In this document: piece after piece, positions 3,918 to 59,348 of the stretch | Layout: every line of letters starts with the position of its first letter | Numbering within the stretch: the stretch's first letter is position 1 | Notes under the pieces: generated by a model | What the model saw: the letters and a program-made list of their open reading frames with translations, nothing else | Database searches by the model: none | Told to the model about the DNA's origin: nothing | Source of the DNA: Clostridia bacterium | GTDB taxonomy: Bacteria; Bacillota; Clostridia; Christensenellales; UBA1242 | Assembly: GCA_017444785.1 (NCBI GenBank) | Contig: JAFSVX010000010.1 | Span: forward strand, 4,648 to 68,647 | Direction of reading: 5' to 3' | DNA length: 64,000 bases | Position numbers and translations under genes: made by a program

Positions 3918-4381
3918 ATGAATAATTTATATAAAATCTGTTCGTGTTTTGGTCATCACAAAATTGAGATTGATGAAGAACTTAAAAATAAAATTTTTAA
4001 TATCGCTGAAAGCTTGTTTTAAACGAAAAAGTGGAAACTTTTTTATTTGGTGGATTTGGTATGTTTGACAACCTTTGTCATCAAATTGTCACAAAGTTAA
4101 AAGAAATCTATCCTAATATAAAAAGAGTGTATGTTTTGGAAGAAGAAAAATGGATTGATGAATACAAGCGTCCTAAATATCTATCAAATGACGATTATGA
4201 AGAATTTGTTTATTATTCACCAAGATTTAATGGATTTTACAAGCGAATATATTTCAGAAATCTTGAGATTATCGACCGAAGTGATTTTATTTTGTTCTAT
4301 ATCAGAAACACTGAAAAAAGTGGAGCATATAAAGCCTATAAGTATGCTGAGAAAAACAAAAAGAAAGTCATAAATTTGTGA
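3918..4381 (+). pseudogene. SLOG/DUF1273-like protein, frameshifted paralog of 10107-10562
   Basis: ATG 3918 reads MNNLYKICSCFGHHKIEIDEELKNKIFNIAESLF then TAA at 4020-4022; homology continues in another frame from about 4019 (LNEKVETFLFGGFGMFD...). One extra T in the T4 run 4017-4020 would restore a full-length protein colinear with the paralog. Confidence 0.7.
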
Positions 4382-21036: not shown

Positions 21037-24000
21037 TTAACTATTCTTCACATATTTCTTATATCCAGCTTTGTCACTTTCTGATTGCAAAGTGAAACCA
21101 GTAATGCCATCAGGACAAATTGCATCTTCATTAACATAAATAACACTTGCCTTGCCTGTAAGGTGTCCAGAAGAATCTGGGACAGAAGCTATCTCATGAC
21201 CGATGAAAGTTACCGTAAGGTTAGAGCACTGATTAAATATATTAGCAAAATTGACTGAAATTCTATTTTTATTTTCTGGTAATATCACAGTAATTTCTTC
21301 TATATTAGGATCATTATAGAACATTCCACTGCCTAATTGAAGTACATTAGAACCATTAATGACTTCACCATTGATAACAACTTTGGTCAATAAACTATTC
21401 ATATGTGCATTCCATGAAACAAGGCTATCATAATTTTCTGATGCACCTGAAATTATAAATGTTGTCATGTTATACACATAAGTAAATGATTCTTGATTTA
21501 TTATTGCAATACTACCCGAAATTTCCACACTTACCAGCTTATCACATTGAAAGAAGGCACGAGTAGGAATTTCTACTCCATCTTTATTAATATTTAAGTT
21601 GATTACTGAACTTGATGTTGGTAAATACTCTTGTGACAAAATTGGTCCAGTAATATCTTTTAAAGCACTGAAGCTATTAAGTAAAGTATTTTGAATTACA
21701 CAATCGCCAGGTATTACGATTCCTTTTAATAAGGTAACATCTGATACTGATATACTTGTTATCTCTGTACATCCTTCAAAACTAAATGGATTTATAATAT
21801 CTGTACAATCATTATCAAAAGCATATACTGTTGCACTTGGATCCACAATACCATATGCAATTTTATAAGAACTATCACTACTTTTAAAATATTTTATGTT
21901 GTTTGATTCAATTTCACTCCAACTGTGGAATACATGTGAAAAATCATCACTTATGACAACCGCATATTTTGCAATATAGCCATTTTCAGAACTGCCCTTT
22001 TCCATTGTTATTGCTGACAAATTCACGATTTCAAGAATCATTTGTCCTTTAAATGCCTCAGATCCAATACTTGTCACTCCATTTGGTATTGCTATTGTCT
22101 TAAGACCAGTCCAATTTGGATCTTGCTGTTTTGCATAGTCTGTCAATTTAAACGCACCTGCACCAATGCTTGTCACACTGGATGGGATTGTGATACTTGT
22201 AAGCCTTGTGCAATTATAGAATGCAGAACTTCCAATACTTGTCACACTATCCGGGATTGTCACACTGGTAAGCCCACTGCAATCGTAGAATGCATGCTGA
22301 TTAATCTCTTTACATCTTGAATCCAATGTTATGTTTGCTATACCGCTATCTGCCAAACCAACAGCTATGTAATCCGTTTCACTCTCTTTGTAATATATCA
22401 CATTATTTATTGTTGTTAATCTGCTTGGAATATCTGCGCTTGTATTTATCACTTTTGCGCGATATCCTGCATATCCATTATCCGAACTTCCTGCCGTGAT
22501 TGTTAAACTTGATAAATTATATACTTCCACCAATCTGTAACAAGCATCAAATGCCCTCTCTCCAATGCTTGTCACACTGGCTGGAATTGTGATACTTGTA
22601 AGTCCTGTGCACTCATAGAATGCATCACTTCCAATGCGTGTAAGAGTGCTTGGCAATGTTACTGATCCTGTTATTCCTTGTGGCACTTGTATAATTGATG
22701 TCTTCGCTTTGTTATATAATATTCCATCTTGTGATGCATATACTGTGTTATTCTCATCAACTGTAAATTGGGTAAGTCCACTGCACTCATCAAATACTCT
22801 ATCACCAATTGTCTGCACTCCTGCACCAATCGTCACTGTTTCAAGAGACGAACATCTCATGATTGCCCTTGCTCCAATGCTTGTTATGTTGTCAGACAAT
22901 GTCACACTTGTAAGACCACTGTTGAAATAAAATGCCCAGTCTGGAATCTCTGTAATTCCATTTGGAAATGCAAGATTTGTTACCGCTGTGTTATTTATGT
23001 AAAGAGTCCAATCTGCCAAAATCCAATAATTACCAAAACTAATGTTTGTTAAGTAATCATTTAATGAGCCAGAATAATAAAGCGAAATTGCAGGGCCTGT
23101 ACCATCATCTTTTGTCCTGAATGCATTGTTTCCAATACTCTCAATTCCAGCCCCAAAATTAATTCTTGTTAATGTGCAATTATGGAATGCATCTTTACCT
23201 ATTGTTTCAACACTGTTTGGAATTGTTATGCTTGTCAATCCTGTGCAACTGTTGAATGCAGATTCACCAATGGTCACAAGGCTTGTTGGCAAAGAGATGT
23301 TGCTTAAACTTGTGCAACCATAAAATGCAACATAGCCAATGCTTGTTATACTGTTCGACCAAGTTACAGATTCAAGTTCAGAACATTGATAGAATAAATA
23401 AGATCCAATATTTGTTACTCCACTGCCAATTCTTACAGTTTCCAAATCAAAACATCTGTAAAATACAGTATTGCCAAGTGATGTCACACTGTCTGGAATA
23501 ACCACGTCAGTAAGTGATTCACAACGAGCAAATGCTGCCCCATCAATTGTCACAAGCCTATTTGGCAATATCAAATTTTCAAGGCCTGTACATCCTTCAA
23601 ATGCACTTGAATGAATTGTTGTCAAAGTGTCTGGCAATGTCAAAGTTGTAAGATTTGAACAGTTATAAAACGCCTTTTCACCGATTTCTGTCACACCTGA
23701 GCCCAATGTTACACTATAAAGACCAGTGCCGAAAAACGCACGCGATCCAATTGTAACATTGCCTGACGTGGTTACTTGTGCCAAACCACTAAAACCTTCA
23801 AATGCAGAACTACTGATATTTATATCACCGATAAGTTCAAGATTAACATCATAAATTTGAACACCACCAGTAACAAATGAACTTCTGTTTAAAGTCCCAT
23901 TACCAATTACAGAAACATTATTTACAAAGCAGGTGAGAGTGTTTGTATAAGACCAGGAACCATTATACGTAACAAGTGACATAATGAGTTTGTTAGGGTT

Positions 24001-25075
24001 ATATACCATTAATGCCGCTGTATTATAAATTTCAGTTACACTATCTGGCAAAACCAAGTCATTTTCAATCTTTGTATCATAAAATCCAACAGTTCTTAAA
24101 CTACTTGGTAAAGTAAGAGAATCACAATATAACGAATCACACTCCACTTGGTGACATGTATATAGTTCCCCATCCACAAATTGTCTTGGAACAACGATGT
24201 TCGTCTTAGCATTCGTTAAATAAACTAATTCACCTCCACATATAGTGTTATCTATAAGCTCTGGAGTTGCAGTTTTTGTGTAAAGATTATAAATTGCAAA
24301 ATTTTGATTTGATGCAACTGCACTTTGTGCAACTGGGGCAAGAGCCTCGCCATCTTCAATGCCTGTTAAAAGTATTTCCTCTTTAAAGTATCCACAACAT
24401 TCAGTATAAGGGAGAGGGGCATCTGAAAGATTAAATGTTGTGCTGTTTCCAAGACTTACCGATCTTGCAAGTACTCCATCTACATAAAAGTCTATGTAAT
24501 TTCCATAAAGCTGGGTATAGTTGTTCACAATGTTACATCCATCAACAACAAGTGTTCCACCATCTTCAACATAAACTGCTGTGGCTTCCTCACTGGCATT
24601 TCCTGTGATTGATCCACCAAGAAGATGGCAGGTTCCACCTGCCTCAACATAAATGGCACCTCCCCATTTTGCTTGGTTATAGGCAATAACTCCACCTGTC
24701 ATTGTGAATGTCCCACCATTGGCAACATAAATTGCTCCACCATACTCGGCAGAGTGTGACCTTATTGCACCTTGTGACATTGTAAAGCTACTGCCACTGC
24801 CAACATAGATTGATCCGGCCTTTGCTGTCAGTGGCGCCTGCGATGCACCACTATCTTCATTCTCTGAAGCATAATAAACACCAGGGATATCATATCTCTC
24901 TGGTGTTGTTTCTTCAACTTCCACTGGTGTGGAAGGTTTATTATTTCCTCTATTTACAAAGATTAACCCTATCGTAAGGGCAACGGCAAAGACCGCAAGT
25001 ATGATACTTGTTAAAAGTCTATACCCCCCCCCCCATGACGGTTTTGTTCTTATTTGACTTATTTGTCATTGCCAT
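21037..25075 (-). CDS. BspA-like leucine-rich-repeat surface protein with GGAIY beta-helix head; N-terminal signal-anchor exon out of frame at a poly-G tract
   Basis: ORF 21037-24924 (1295 aa): GGAIYV repeats, then many about 23-aa LRR_5-type repeats (IPxSVTSIGxxAFxxCxxLTS). RBS GGAGAGG plus ATG 25073-25075 encode MAMTNKSNKNKTVM. The main frame encodes YRLLTSIILAVFAVALTIGLIFV right after the tract. The two frames differ by 1 nt. Confidence 0.75.
25024..25034 (-). repeat. Homopolymeric G11 tract (C11 on plus strand) inside the 5' coding region
   Basis: Counted directly: C at 25024-25034. G10 would be in frame. Confidence 0.95.
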
Positions 25076-53213: not shown

Positions 53214-55523
53214 TTATGCAAAGTTTTGATTAAGTTTAAATACAATAACTGTCATATCGTCAGGGTGCGCAGTTCTGCTTTCCGCTTCTTCCAAGATGCT
53301 GTCCGCAAGCATTTGCACATTGATGAACATTTCATTATTGACAAAATCTGCAAAGTTTTCAGGGGAAGAAAATGCGTCCACAATTCCGTCCGAGGCTATC
53401 ACAACAATATCCCCCACCTGCAAAACTTTTTTCTCGACCGTTGGATAGATCTTTTCCATAACTCCAAGTGGCAGACTGCTACAACTGATCACGGCACATT
53501 GATTTTTTTGCTTAATCACACTCACGCTTGCCCCAATCTTGACAAAATCCGCCATACCGGAGGAAAGATCAACCACAACGGCATCAAGAGTGGTAAAGTT
53601 TTCCTCCCCCGCAGGAATTAAAATCTTGTTAACACTGTGAACAATGGTCTCAGATGAAAACTGAGATTTATAAAAGCTCTCCACTATGGAAAGCGCAGAT
53701 GAGGAAATTTGATTTGCTTTCACCCCATGTCCCTTGCCATCAGCAATTGCAAAAAGATACCTTCCACTCCCAATCTTTTTATAGGAATAGACATCTCCGC
53801 TGAGCCCATCAACCGACTTTTGAGCAAACCCAATTGCAAGCGAATATTTATCTGCTGGCTCAAACTGAAGAATACTCCAACCAGAAAGTCTTGCAAATGT
53901 CTGTCTTATAAGCACCATACTCATCTTCAAAACAGTTTTCAGATCCTCAGAAATTTTTGGATTGACAATGTCACTGTTACGAACTGCAAGCACCACCTTT
54001 TTGACACCACTGTTTCCACTTATGACTTCACATTCATTGACCACAACTTTATCCGAAGTCAGCTGATCCAAAACAGCTTTTGCTTGCTTTTTATCAAAAA
54101 TCTCATCTTCAGAAATCGCAAGTGCAAGCTCACTAAAAATCTTTCCAGTTGCCCCCATCTGAGCACTGACAAGCATTTTCCCATTGTCAGAGGAAGCAAC
54201 CTGCTCTTGATATTTAAAGTAAAGTTTCAGTGCCTCGTTGACCTCGCCAATAAGCACGCTGAACTTATCACAACTGCCTGTTAAAAGATTGTTGGCATCA
54301 AGGATTGTAACTTTGCCCTTCTCCATACCAAAATCTATCAGCTGGTATATCGCCGAGTGTATCTGCGCATTTTCACTGCAATTATTTTTATTGATGCACG
54401 CACAACAAATTTTTGACTCAATCTCGTTTGTCAGCATCTGGCAATATTCATCTTTGTTGACTTTTCCAATACTGAGATTTCGGTATTCCACCTGCATAGA
54501 CCTAAACAGCTGAGACATACCGGTCAGTCTGCTTTTAAGTTCTTCCCTCCTTCCACTTATAAGGTATTCGCTGACAAGATTTCCGTCATAGTCAAAGCCA
54601 AATCCTTGAAGATAGACAAATAGCTTGCTTGGCACACACAAAAACAGAAAAAGACAACAAAGCGTGGCCAAAAGACACACATAGTTATAAACCGGATAGG
54701 CATTTAAAAACATACCAAATACCAAGTCTGCCAAAGCTGCCAAAACAGCAGGGAAAAATCTGCTGTTTTGTGCAAAACAAGAAAAGATTAGACCAAAAGT
54801 TACAAATACAGCAATAAAAGTTACATTTGCATTCACAAAAGAAAATCCAAGCCCAGCAAGAGCAGAAAAATAAACATTTGCACTTTTTGTCAAAATCCTT
54901 GACATACATGCAAGAAAAAATATCACCATAAGATAGCTTAGATTAACCATACCCACAAACACACCGGCGATGCCACTGAAAAATGCTATCAAAAAGATGC
55001 CAAAGCAGATGCTTTCATCAAGTGTGAACCTGCTTTGAAGTCCACGATAAAAAAGAGCCCCAAACGCAACAACCACGATATACATAAAGCAAAGCCCAAC
55101 CACAATTGAAACCAAGCTTATGATGATCTGCTTTGTGGAATAAATGTTGAAATACAAAAATCCCACTTGACTGAGCGCACAAAAAATCAGTGCAACAAAA
55201 AGAGGCATCTTCTTCTTAGAAATTTTGAAGATAAGATAAAGCAAAATTGCAAAAGACACCACGCTGACACTGATAATCAAATTCTGCAGTGTAAAACCAT
55301 AAATCAACGATATAAGCAAATAAAAAATGCAAAGTAAGACAGCATTTTTGTTAAGATAAATAAGCGCAAACAAAAAGCTAAAGGCAAAGGGATAAAGAAT
55401 ATGCATCACATTTGCACGCGCCAAAACAAGCATAATCAAGAAAACACCAAAATACAACAAAATTTGCTTCTTATTTGCAATCGTCCACTTTCTTAAATTT
55501 TTCATACAAGCATAATAGCACAT
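53214..55523 (-). CDS. spoIIE: Stage II sporulation protein E-like PP2C phosphatase with polytopic membrane domain
   Basis: About 10 TM helices, then the SpoIIE/PP2C domain (GDVYSY...FAIADGKGHGVKA...IASDGIVD). Start ambiguous (TTG 55535, ATG 55523, ATG 55505). Confidence 0.8.
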   Translation of the reverse strand: MCYYACMKNLRKWTIANKKQILLYFGVFLIMLVLARANVMHILYPFAFSFLFALIYLNKNAVLLCIFYLLISLIYGFTLQNLIISVSVVSFAILLYLIFKISKKKMPLFVALIFCALSQVGFLYFNIYSTKQIIISLVSIVVGLCFMYIVVVAFGALFYRGLQSRFTLDESICFGIFLIAFFSGIAGVFVGMVNLSYLMVIFFLACMSRILTKSANVYFSALAGLGFSFVNANVTFIAVFVTFGLIFSCFAQNSRFFPAVLAALADLVFGMFLNAYPVYNYVCLLATLCCLFLFLCVPSKLFVYLQGFGFDYDGNLVSEYLISGRREELKSRLTGMSQLFRSMQVEYRNLSIGKVNKDEYCQMLTNEIESKICCACINKNNCSENAQIHSAIYQLIDFGMEKGKVTILDANNLLTGSCDKFSVLIGEVNEALKLYFKYQEQVASSDNGKMLVSAQMGATGKIFSELALAISEDEIFDKKQAKAVLDQLTSDKVVVNECEVISGNSGVKKVVLAVRNSDIVNPKISEDLKTVLKMSMVLIRQTFARLSGWSILQFEPADKYSLAIGFAQKSVDGLSGDVYSYKKIGSGRYLFAIADGKGHGVKANQISSSALSIVESFYKSQFSSETIVHSVNKILIPAGEENFTTLDAVVVDLSSGMADFVKIGASVSVIKQKNQCAVISCSSLPLGVMEKIYPTVEKKVLQVGDIVVIASDGIVDAFSSPENFADFVNNEMFINVQMLADSILEEAESRTAHPDDMTVIVFKLNQNFA

Positions 55524-55659
55524 AAAATTTTGCAAACAAAATAAGCAAAAATCTAACTTTGTCGCAAATTGTCTTTTAATAAGTAATGCTTAAAAATAAT
55601 TATTTATTATTCTTGAAATTTACAAAAAATAATGCTAGAATAAAGCAAAGGAAAAATAT

Positions 55660-56903: not shown

Positions 56904-59223
56904 TTATGAATTCTTTATATATTTATTATACCCTGCTCTGTCACTTGTCGTTTGAGTGAATGAATCTGTGATATATGTTCCAACGCTTGTGATTGTGTCT
57001 TTCACATAAACTGTTGTGGCATTTGCGAGCAAATAGGAATCTGATGAATTTAGACCTGCTATCGTTGATGAATCTATTATTACTTCTGTAAGGCTACTGC
57101 AACCCAAAATTGCGCTATCTCCTATGTTGATCAAACCACTTCCTATTGTTATTTTTGTAAGACTACTACAACCGTTAAATATCCAACCAGCAATACTTGT
57201 TACACTATCCGGAATTGTAATTTCAATAAGTGAACTGCAACCTTCAAATGCAACAGTTCCAATACTTGTTAAAGTATTTGATAATATGACTTCTGTAAGA
57301 CCACTGCAACCGTTGAAAGCAGAAACTCCAATGCTAAGTACACCACTTGGAATATTTATGCTTGTAAGTCCAGTACAATTTTGAAATGCATTATTACGAA
57401 TAAACCTGGTATTTCCATTTATTCCACACGATGTTATAGAATTATTTTTTGCATAAATAAGCAATATATATGCATTTATATTGTTTCCAAGATATTTTGC
57501 ATTATCATATTCATTACAAATCAATGATGTGCAACCATTAAATACATAATCTCCAATACTTATAAGGCTGTTTGGAATCGTAACATTTGTAAGTGAACTG
57601 CAATCCCTAAATACTGAATCTCCTATACTTGTCACACCTTCTGGTATAATAACACTCGTCAGGTCTGAACAACTCCAAAATGCACACTCTCCAATGCTTG
57701 TCACACTGCTTCCAATTGTCACACTGCTTACTTTTGGGCTGTATGATGAGTTTGTGACATAAAACAAATTTGCCGGTATGCTTTCAACATTATTACCAAA
57801 TACAACTCCAATTCCATCCCCGTTTGCGCCTGCCCTATAGAATAAATTTTGTGGTACTGAGGCTATGTTAATTGCATTATAATATATGGTTTCTAGACCA
57901 TAACAACCACGGAATGCACCTGTGTCAATGCTTGTCACACTGTCTGGGATTGTTATACTTGTCAGTCCACTACAACTGCTGAATCCCCAAGATTTAATCC
58001 TTGTCACACCATCTGGAATTCTCAATGCCCCAGTAAGCCCGCTACAAGAAGAAAATACGCCATTTTCAATTCTTGTCAAACCACTTCCAAATTTCAGACC
58101 TGTAAATCCTGTGCAACCACCAAATGCAGAATCTTCAATAACTATCACACTGTTTGGAATTGTCAATGTCCCTGTAAATCCTGTGCAATGTAGAAATGCA
58201 CTCCATCCAATTTTTTTAATACAACCGGGAATTATCAATGTCCCAGTAATCTCACTGCAGTTTTGAAAGGCACCACCTTCAATGCTTGTCACATCTTGAT
58301 TTTCATGTTGCCTTGGAATAACAACTTCACCAGTTGGTGTTCCTTGTTTACTTACAAAATGCACATTATTACTTATATAAAAATATAATTTATCAAGTGT
58401 TGCAGTTTTTGTATAAAGTCTTACTGTTTCAAAATTATTTACTGTGGCACTTTGAACTGCCGTTGGAGTATAAATTGTGTCACCGTCTTCCAGATACTGT
58501 GTGCATTCTGCATCTTTGAAATATCCAGGACAATTGTTATAATCAAGTGGTAAAACATCTGTGTCGTAAACAAACTTACCATCTGTTAAATCCAATGCTG
58601 AAACCGCAGCAACTTTTCCATCAACATAATATACAACATAACTGTCATAAAGTTGTGAACTGTTGCTGTTTATTGTTGTCGTTGTTGTTTGTCCTTCAAT
58701 AACTGTTCCACCTGCATTATATATCGCAGCACCAGTTTCCGCTGCATTTCCGACAATCGCCCCGCCATTAAGATTAACTGTTCCACCTTCTTCAACATAG
58801 ATTGCACCACCACAAATTGCTTGGTTAAACATTATTGTTCCGCCATTCATGGTAAAAGTACCACCACTTGCAACATATACTGCCCCACCATATGTCGCTG
58901 ATGAACCTTTATATGTTCCACCATTCATCACATATGAACTTCCTGCACCAACATAAATTGCTCCGCCCTTTTCAGACATTGGGGCAAGTGCTGTACCATT
59001 TTCTTCAACTTCCTGCGCTGATGCATAATAAACACCAGGGATAGTTCTATCCTTGGTGTCCTGCTGGTTCTCAACCACTGTTGGTGATGTGGTTGCCTTG
59101 TTGTTATTAACAATTTTTACGGAAAAAGTAAAGATAAGCGCAGCAACAACTATCGCTATACTTATTAGTATCTTATTAAGCTGCCCCCCCCCCGATTTTT
59201 GCTGTTTTTACCTTGTTTTTCAT
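56904..59223 (-). CDS. BspA-like LRR surface protein (paralog 2); N-terminal signal-anchor exon out of frame at a poly-G tract
   Basis: ORF 56904-59078 (724 aa) has the same head (GGAIYV repeats) and tail (AGYNKYIKNS) as the 1295-aa paralog. RBS GGAGAAGG plus ATG 59221-59223 encode MKNKVKTAKI, then G10. The main frame continues QLNKILISIAIVVAALIFTFSV. Confidence 0.75.
59184..59193 (-). repeat. Homopolymeric G10 tract (C10 on plus strand) in the 5' coding region
   Basis: Counted directly: C at 59184-59193. G9 would be in frame. Confidence 0.95.
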
Positions 59224-59319
59224 ACCTTCTCCCTGCCTTTTGTGTTCCCACAATATTTTTCTGCCAACGGCTTTTCTGGGTTTTTCACCCCAACTTATTG
59301 ACATCTTTTGGATACCTAT

Positions 59320-59348
59320 ATTCTATATTTTTATTCTGCCCTTGTCAA
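59320..59348 (-). promoter_or_regulatory. Promoter of the 724-aa LRR protein gene
   Basis: Reverse strand TTTGACAAG with TTGACA (59343-59348), 17 nt, TAGAAT (59320-59325); same -35 context as the paralog promoter. Confidence 0.6.

Follow-up and report, generated by a model that had tools for sequence, protein, structure and literature searches.

Results

Two LRR protein genes with a G run close to the start codon

The window analyzed here is a 64-kb stretch (64,000 nt) of contig JAFSVX010000010.1 in assembly GCA_017444785.1, the metagenome-assembled genome (MAG) of a Clostridia bacterium. Its minus strand carries two genes for large leucine-rich repeat (LRR) proteins, each with an uninterrupted run of G residues near its 5' end. 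In the first, whose long open reading frame (ORF) is annotated as 724 amino acids (aa), a run of ten G (G10) sits directly after the tenth codon, one base out of frame with what follows. Tract lengths that join the start codon to the body of the gene are called ON here, and all others are called OFF. The features of this gene are as follows.

59320 to 59348, minus strand: sigma-70-type promoter, TTGACA-17 nt-TAGAAT, with 11 of 12 matches, the best promoter-like site of the region
59225 to 59232, minus strand: Shine-Dalgarno sequence GGAGAAGG, read from the sequence, its GGAG core 5 nt before the ATG
59194 to 59223, minus strand: true start ATG (59221 to 59223) and n-region codons, MKNKVKTAKI, with a net charge of +5 before the hydrophobic core
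59184 to 59193, minus strand: G10 homopolymer (C10 on the plus strand), the proposed slippage switch, giving GGG at G9 and GGGG at G12; OFF as recorded
59176 to 59178, minus strand: premature TAA of the OFF (G10) frame, which closes a 15-codon ORF (GCA GCT TAA after the run)
59118 to 59171, minus strand: hydrophobic h-region or membrane anchor, ILISIAIVVAALIFTFSV, translated only with the tract in frame and aligning with the anchors of intact homologs
59076 to 59078, minus strand: GTG at which the 724-aa ORF and the database protein begin, not a credible start (no Shine-Dalgarno sequence, product without export signal)
56904 to 59183, minus strand: surface-protein body, comprising linker, beta-helix-like GGAIYV region, middle domain, BspA-type LRR_5 repeats, and stop; ORF intact

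Reading of the minus strand placed the Shine-Dalgarno sequence, the ATG, the MKNKVKTAKI codons, the G run, and the TAA exactly where a first-pass annotation, made from the letters of the window, had put them. The same annotation held that the 724-aa frame has no usable start before GTG 59078, and the ORF reading agrees: the frame is open from 59207 through the run, where it reads SGGGQLNKILISIAIVVAALIFTFSVKIVNNNK, and the first ATG, GTG, or TTG in it is GTG 59078. When the tract length was edited in silico, G9 yielded a 772-aa ORF and G12 one of 773 aa, restoring the continuous signal-anchor protein that had been proposed for these two lengths, while G7, G8, G10, G11, and G13 gave merely 14 to 19 aa. 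A change of ±1 nt switches between full-length product and early stop, which is the frame toggle of a homopolymer contingency locus. The promoter has an ordinary 17-nt spacer that contains no G tract.

The second gene, a paralog of the same architecture, is organized in the same way, and its tract lies 34 kb from that of the first.

21037 to 25075, minus strand: paralogous gene, ATG at 25073 to 25075, 1345 aa when ON
25024 to 25034, minus strand: G11 tract at the same n-region/h-region junction, ON at G10 or G13 (1345 or 1346 aa); the count of 11 includes the G of the preceding ATG codon
25168 to 25196, minus strand: promoter, TTGACA-17 nt-TAAAAT, with no tract in the spacer

Both G10 and G11 reach the length that marks contingency loci (about 8 nt or more, beyond what composition accounts for). 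The paralog is restored by G10 or G13 and is therefore also one base longer than its nearest ON length. The further first-pass claims, that both paralogs carry the tract at the same n-region/h-region junction, encode GGG there when ON, and are recorded at +1 relative to ON, were thus confirmed, the nearest restoring lengths being G9 for 59184 to 59193 and G10 for the paralog. Identity between the two proteins is about 31% overall and 39% across the N-terminal region. Their promoters, each the best sigma-70-like site of its own region and ~95 nt upstream of the ATG, are visibly homologous in alignment, and the core is also kept in a relative, locus L172.

The export signal lies in the restored frame

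Both bodies encode BspA-type LRR surface proteins, as judged by LRR_5 blocks (Pfam PF13306) that exceed the Pfam gathering score: five stretches in the protein of the 724-aa ORF (E = 4.4e-97) and eight in the paralog (E = 3.8e-131). A conserved N-terminal region of ~300 aa with GGA[IV]YV motifs precedes the repeats in both proteins, and in the paralog this region matches Beta_helix (PF13229, 26.6 bits), a right-handed beta-helix. In the AlphaFold model, stacked strands make up a beta-helix block at residues ~61 to 180, with a predicted local distance difference test score of about 83 to 96 (mostly >90), and a helix occupies residues 9 to 28 of the stop-to-stop translation, directly after GGG. 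A fold search of the PDB with the N-terminal model returned no match at E < 0.1. Membership in the chlamydial Pmp family was considered and rejected, as PF02415 scored 9.7 and 11 bits, below the cut-off of 20.6, and the domain search found no barrel; the likeness to those proteins is confined to the GGAIYV motifs.

In the restored frame, both proteins have a positively charged n-region, Gly-Gly-Gly, and a 19-residue hydrophobic core with a Kyte-Doolittle hydropathy of 2.5 to 2.7 (maximum of 2.52 across 19 residues for the anchor encoded at 59118 to 59171). The annotated, GTG-started versions have no hydrophobic segment (0.4 to 0.55) and an acidic N terminus. The export signal expected of BspA-type proteins was found only in the restored frame, where charge, a hydropathy of 2.52, and the modeled helix coincide, and the combination of LRR_5 architecture with an N-terminal anchor is that of a surface-exposed product. 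A type IV prepilin-like signal, suggested by Gly ahead of a hydrophobic stretch, was rejected by eye because there is no Glu at +5. Judging by the BspA family name, the protein may act in adhesion or serve as a target of antibodies or phages.

The public entries for both proteins (MBQ7466601.1, 724 aa; P0253, 1295 aa, starting at GTG 24922 to 24924) begin at an internal GTG without a Shine-Dalgarno sequence. The database proteins thus lack an export signal because they were annotated from a spurious internal start. The same arrangement, a short ORF with a good Shine-Dalgarno sequence ahead of a long ORF, could instead be read as a 15-codon regulatory leader peptide upstream of a protein that begins at GTG 59078. 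This was rejected: GTG 59078 has no Shine-Dalgarno sequence, its product would have extracellular-type domains and no export signal, the frame between tract and GTG encodes a conserved anchor, and homologs have a single continuous N terminus that spans both parts. We give this explanation next to no credence.

Intact homologs read through the junction

Intact homologs (P0004, P0015, P0122, and others) have one continuous N terminus that aligns with the restored one, and an N-terminal hydrophobic stretch is present in 73 of the 84 family members retrieved. Because the restored N termini align with these homologs, have the hydropathy of an anchor, and are modeled as a helix directly after GGG, we take the ON frame to be the real gene.

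Three relatives are informative at the junction itself. In L172, which shares clear homology with the window gene in its promoter and 5' untranslated region (UTR) DNA, the junction reads AAC GGG GGG AGG GTA (NGGRV), a ten-base run with one A inside (GGGGGGAGGG at 597 to 606). In L003, it reads CAT GGG GGG TGG TGG CTT (GGGGGGTGGTGG at about 4028 to 4039), and in L171, the two glycines are encoded by GGA GGC. Since Gly-Gly is translated at the junction in these relatives, the frame through the run is the coding frame. The interrupted, in-frame tracts of L172 and L003 may descend from the pure tract as "locked-ON" forms, or may have preceded it. A pure tract in one genome, with interrupted or recoded versions at this position in others, is the pattern expected of a repeat that is gained, used, and locked.

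Chance does not explain the tracts, and decay is very unlikely

In a homopolymer census of the window, which has a GC content of 35 to 39%, no G/C run exceeds 5 apart from the G10 and G11 tracts. Matches to G8 numbered 7, compared with 0.3 expected from shuffled sequences, and 7 was never reached in the shuffles. The other simple-sequence repeats in the window are just three A/T runs of 8 and one (AT)5. GGG makes up 10.8% of the Gly codons in the window. Gly-Gly occurs 20 times across the two gene bodies and is in no case encoded by GGGGGG, the longest G run there being 4. A profile of the family N-terminal domain matches exactly two genes of the window, the same two that carry the tracts. Chance does not account for the tracts, and neutral codon choice would not yield a pure tract at the same junction in paralogs as diverged as these.

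The same data bear on whether the two genes are recent pseudogenes, inactivated by a one-way homopolymer frameshift and decaying. Both genes are out of frame in the sole assembly, no ON allele was found in the databases searched, and the LRR protein InlA of Listeria, inactivated by poly-A frameshifts, provides a precedent for selective inactivation (PMC2831843). However, no second lesion is present in 724 or 1295 codons, and both genes retain an intact promoter, Shine-Dalgarno sequence, and ATG. Furthermore, both disruptions fall exactly at pure tracts, which are themselves improbable under neutral codon usage, and the pure tract has been maintained at one and the same junction in paralogs with about 31% identity (39% N-terminal). 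We consider decay of the two genes very unlikely.

Several other properties of the window were recorded. The run has G on the sense strand, never C, at all ten loci with a tract (the two of the window and eight in relatives described below). The minus strand, which carries both genes, is G-rich throughout, and GC skew is negative on the plus strand. Searching the whole 64 kb against Rfam gave no family at the gathering score, which leaves the 5' region without an explanation by a known RNA element. Neither a tRNA nor a riboswitch nor a leader turned up, although a ribosomal-protein/SecY cluster and genes for several tRNA synthetases lie in the window. The 5' UTRs of both genes fold no better than their shuffles.

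Relatives carry G tracts in promoter spacers

Searching the GTDB species representatives with the N-terminal profile yielded 80 family loci, 8 of which have a sense-strand run of G8 to G13 upstream of the family gene. At 7 of these 8, from MAGs of related gut Clostridia, a run of G10 to G13 lies between a TTGACA hexamer, directly 5' of it, and a TATAAT-like hexamer; the eighth, a G8, has no promoter context. The spacer is exactly 17 nt in L037 (G12) and L039 (G10), and the other loci have 14, 16, 18, 19, or 20 nt, including 19 nt in L025 and 14 nt in three rabbit-gut loci. This placement of a tract in the spacer is of the PorA type; it was found at L025, L037, L039, and L163 to L167 and not in the window gene. 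The promoter tracts with spacers of 17 to 20 nt lie at the following positions of their loci.

L025, 39 to 49: promoter tract, MAG locus
L037, 44 to 55: promoter tract, MAG locus
L039, 3714 to 3723: promoter tract, MAG locus
L055, 60 to 72: promoter tract, MAG locus, -10 box indistinct
L163, 529 to 539: promoter tract, human-gut contig
L164, 535 to 545: promoter tract, human-gut contig
L165, 39 to 51: promoter tract, human-gut contig
L166, 527 to 537: promoter tract, human-gut contig
L167, 83 to 92: promoter tract, human-gut contig
L170, 148 to 160: promoter tract, human-gut contig

The human-gut contigs came from exact-protein look-ups for two of the promoter-tract genes, and they differ in tract length. 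L166 to L170 show 0 mismatches over 1,455 bp of coding sequence and have tracts of G11, G10, G9, G7TG5, and G13, respectively; over about 1,650 bp, L166 and L170 differ in nothing but the tract, which is G11 in the former and G13 in the latter. L164 and L165, one base apart in coding sequence, likewise have G11 and G13. These length differences at homologous family promoters, read at low coverage, match what a hypermutable tract predicts. With tracts in the promoters of relatives and in the signal codons here, poly-G goes with the family in two placements. Not every lineage shows this association: among the 28 family loci of the sheep-colon MAG RGIG5459, no run exceeds G8.

Other observations from the family scan are given here. 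RGIG5459 (JAFVWN01; loci L006 to L048) accounts for 28 of the 80 loci, a large paralog expansion of the beta-helix plus LRR_5 family. Among metagenome contigs, the only further tract locus was L083, on the same contig as L025. The three rabbit-gut loci (L036, 3603 to 3660; L049, 3779 to 3830; L051, 3641 to 3700) have TTGACAT and G12 followed at once by a perfect palindrome with a 12- to 19-bp stem. The palindromes differ in sequence by locus, have RNA folding energies of -15.6 to -22.7 kcal/mol (z down to -7.8), and overlap the putative -10 box, the spacer being just 14 nt; they may be operators or 5' stem-loops. Contig ends fall within about 40 to 200 nt of family G tracts or inside anchor codons at L001 (1 to 40), L025, L165, and L167 to L170. 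Contig ends near runs in several independent short-read assemblies suggest breaks or misjoins at G runs.

Probable further paralogs in the same genome and the recorded tract length

The 724-aa ORF matches MBQ7466601.1 (labeled "MAG: Clostridia bacterium") with 100% identity. Its next-best full-length match, P0002, is MBQ7466695.1 (48%), and its best N-terminal match, P0121, is MBQ7466987.1 (45%); close accession numbers and an identical source label suggest that both come from the same MAG. Both are annotated from a Met just past the anchor (MVEQTEDTKDKSIPGVYY and MEVEQSTPERYDIPGVYY), a position homologous to the GTG starts in the window. The genome thus seems, from these entries, to have at least four paralogs, all lacking the anchor as annotated.

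This pattern raises the question of whether the recorded length is a +1 sequencing or assembly miscall, with the gene really in frame (G9) in the dominant population and the OFF state artefactual, be the tract one that switches or not. Both window tracts are exactly +1, the four paralogs of the MAG all seem to lack their N-terminal end, G tracts are known to cause trouble for Illumina chemistry (PMC9187656), and the contig breaks described above recur in several assemblies within about 40 to 200 nt of family tracts. However, the assembly runs through both tracts within a contig of 74 kb, and the promoter tracts of other assemblies show no uniform +1 offset (17-nt spacers in L037 and L039, and others of 14 to 20 nt). 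Moreover, an OFF consensus is usual for loci of this kind (PMC5476646, PMC9187656). A miscall is, in our view, unlikely.

Programmed recoding would also leave every copy out of frame. All four paralogs would then be permanently one base off and expressed mainly by slippage on the G run, either of RNA polymerase or of tRNA-Gly in the +1 direction on GGG GGG GGG G, which would restore the frame for a fraction of the transcripts or ribosomes and give constitutive low-level expression. Apparently 4 of 4 paralogs are out of frame, the two that can be checked share the +1 phase, the G run should re-pair perfectly after a one-base shift, and homopolymer transcriptional slippage is documented in bacteria. 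Against this, no distinct stimulatory element was found: folding around the tracts is just mildly better than in shuffles (z = -2.5 and -2.8) and is driven by the G run itself, and no discrete conserved hairpin, hungry or obviously rare codon, or stop adjoins it. Relatives differ in tract length at the DNA level, and the effect in the closest experimental precedent was attributed to replication slippage (PMC9187656). If recoding were nevertheless true, programmed slippage would give Clostridia a constitutive means of recoding their surface proteins, but we judge it highly improbable.

The neighbors of the two genes are core genes (UvrA, UvrB, GroEL, SecY, LysRS, TilS, SpoIIE, ribosomal protein L1, and TsaD), which indicates that the organism is a sporulating Firmicute and that the region is not a mobile element. 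The 773-aa ORF at 53214 to 55535 on the minus strand, between the two family genes, encodes a full-length SpoIIE (SpoIIE_N plus SpoIIE) and has no tract upstream; with this homolog present, the organism is probably a spore former. Apart from the tracts, both family ORFs are intact (724 and 1295 codons).

Discussion

We propose, with a probability of roughly 0.7, that the G10 run is a real slipped-strand contingency locus captured in the OFF state. The first-pass annotation had read it in this way, and that reading has gained support from the alignment with intact homologs, the Gly-Gly of relatives at the junction, and the length-polymorphic promoter tracts; switching at the tract itself is the part that we infer.

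In the proposed mechanism, slipped-strand mispairing during replication would lengthen or shorten the run by one G. With G9 or G12, translation would proceed from the ATG at 59223 through Gly-Gly-Gly into the anchor and produce a surface protein of 772 or 773 aa, in which a hinge of three to four Gly would separate the n- and h-regions. At G10, G8, G11, or G13, ribosomes would stop after 14 to 19 codons and leave the 2.2-kb body untranslated, and any internally started product would be devoid of an export signal. Slippage at 59184 to 59193 would presumably be reversible. By analogy with the Bifidobacterium breve case discussed below, polar loss of the downstream mRNA may accompany the OFF state. 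The tract at 25024 to 25034 would act alike and independently, so that two, and probably four, paralogs could switch independently and cells of one population could display different combinations of proteins. The assembly would have captured both window genes OFF.

Several observations weigh against a contingency locus. Both window tracts are +1 from an ON length, and apparently all four paralogs are OFF, which chance allows ((2/3)^4, about 0.2) but which would also be expected from a systematic miscall or a decoding route outside DNA. The species is represented by a single assembly in the databases searched: a full-length protein search gave a 100% match only to the source MAG entry, and a pattern of the exact flanks with a variable gap found no second strain in metagenome contigs. 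No database homolog has a pure-GGG ON allele at the junction, and the pure tracts of relatives are in promoters, not in coding sequence. Finally, the length differences among the human-gut contigs come from 3 to 13x assemblies with several tracts near contig ends and may in part be assembly error. Divergence upstream of the tract is complete in L168 and L169, two contigs that may be chimeric or misjoined.

Slippage switching is textbook in mucosal pathogens and barely documented in the uncultured Clostridia that dominate animal guts. Our literature search found no account in which BspA-like proteins of Clostridia are switched by poly-G, which is not proof of absence. If confirmed, the switch would give this lineage a bank of independently switchable, adhesin-like LRR proteins. 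The two placements, in promoter spacers and in export-signal codons, would offer a natural system for how switches arise, move, and become locked by interruptions. There is also a practical consequence: MAG annotation pipelines misreport such genes, and consensus MAG sequences hide population heterogeneity at the tracts.

Comparison with known systems

The nearest analog is the pair of sortase-dependent pilus genes of Bifidobacterium breve UCC2003, bbr_0113 and bbr_1889, which the arrangement described here most resembles; switching at their intragenic G tract was shown experimentally and attributed to replication slippage (PMC9187656). In both cases, a Gram-positive gut commensal has a 5' G tract that splits a short ORF with the expression signals from a surface-protein body, the annotated downstream start has no Shine-Dalgarno sequence or signal, the reference is OFF, and there are two independent loci per genome. 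The differences are that B. breve is a high-GC actinobacterium in which G runs are less exceptional, that its cargo is LPXTG pilins with a sortase operon rather than BspA-type LRR proteins, and that its switching is experimental whereas ours is deduced from the DNA. Moreover, the whole Sec signal of bbr_1889 is in the upstream ORF, while the tract described here is inside the signal, between n- and h-regions.

The closest likeness in cargo is with "Candidatus Mycoplasma girerdii," in which phase variation of BspA-like genes by simple-sequence repeats was seen in metagenomic reads, often with an OFF consensus (PMC5476646). It shares with our case a BspA/TpLRR-type multigene family, a frameshifting repeat, a consensus that is often OFF, and an uncultured, host-associated organism. 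Its repeats, in a Mollicute, are mostly dinucleotide (CA)n, in contrast to poly-G in sporulating Clostridia, and within-population length variants were counted there, compared with one assembly consensus here.

Two further systems share one feature each with the window genes. Listeria monocytogenes inlA has a 5' poly-A tract (PMC2831843) and, like our genes, codes for an LRR surface protein of a Firmicute that is no longer expressed once a 5' homopolymer shifts the frame, but its tract is a short A7, mainly one-way, and not conserved across paralogs, unlike the long G run described here. Campylobacter jejuni has poly-G contingency loci (PMC8437040, PMC3025981) and is likewise a low-GC gut genome in which rare, conspicuous G/C runs of about 8 to 13 mark switchable, surface-related genes. 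It is an epsilonproteobacterium whose targets are mostly glycan-modifying enzymes and whose set is defined genome-wide, whereas here the targets are LRR proteins seen in 64 kb.

Both placements of the tract have counterparts in Neisseria. In pilC, a G run in the signal-peptide codons of a surface or adhesin protein switches it ON and OFF by frameshift. In porA, the G run is in the promoter spacer, between -35 and -10 (PMC3639595), and this arrangement matches the promoter tracts of family members in related genomes. Neisseria are Gram-negative pathogens and the proteins are unrelated, whereas here both arrangements occur within one family across related lineages. What is proposed here is a familiar mechanism in an unfamiliar, uncultured commensal lineage, with one family, two switch placements, and interrupted, "locked" versions at the same site.

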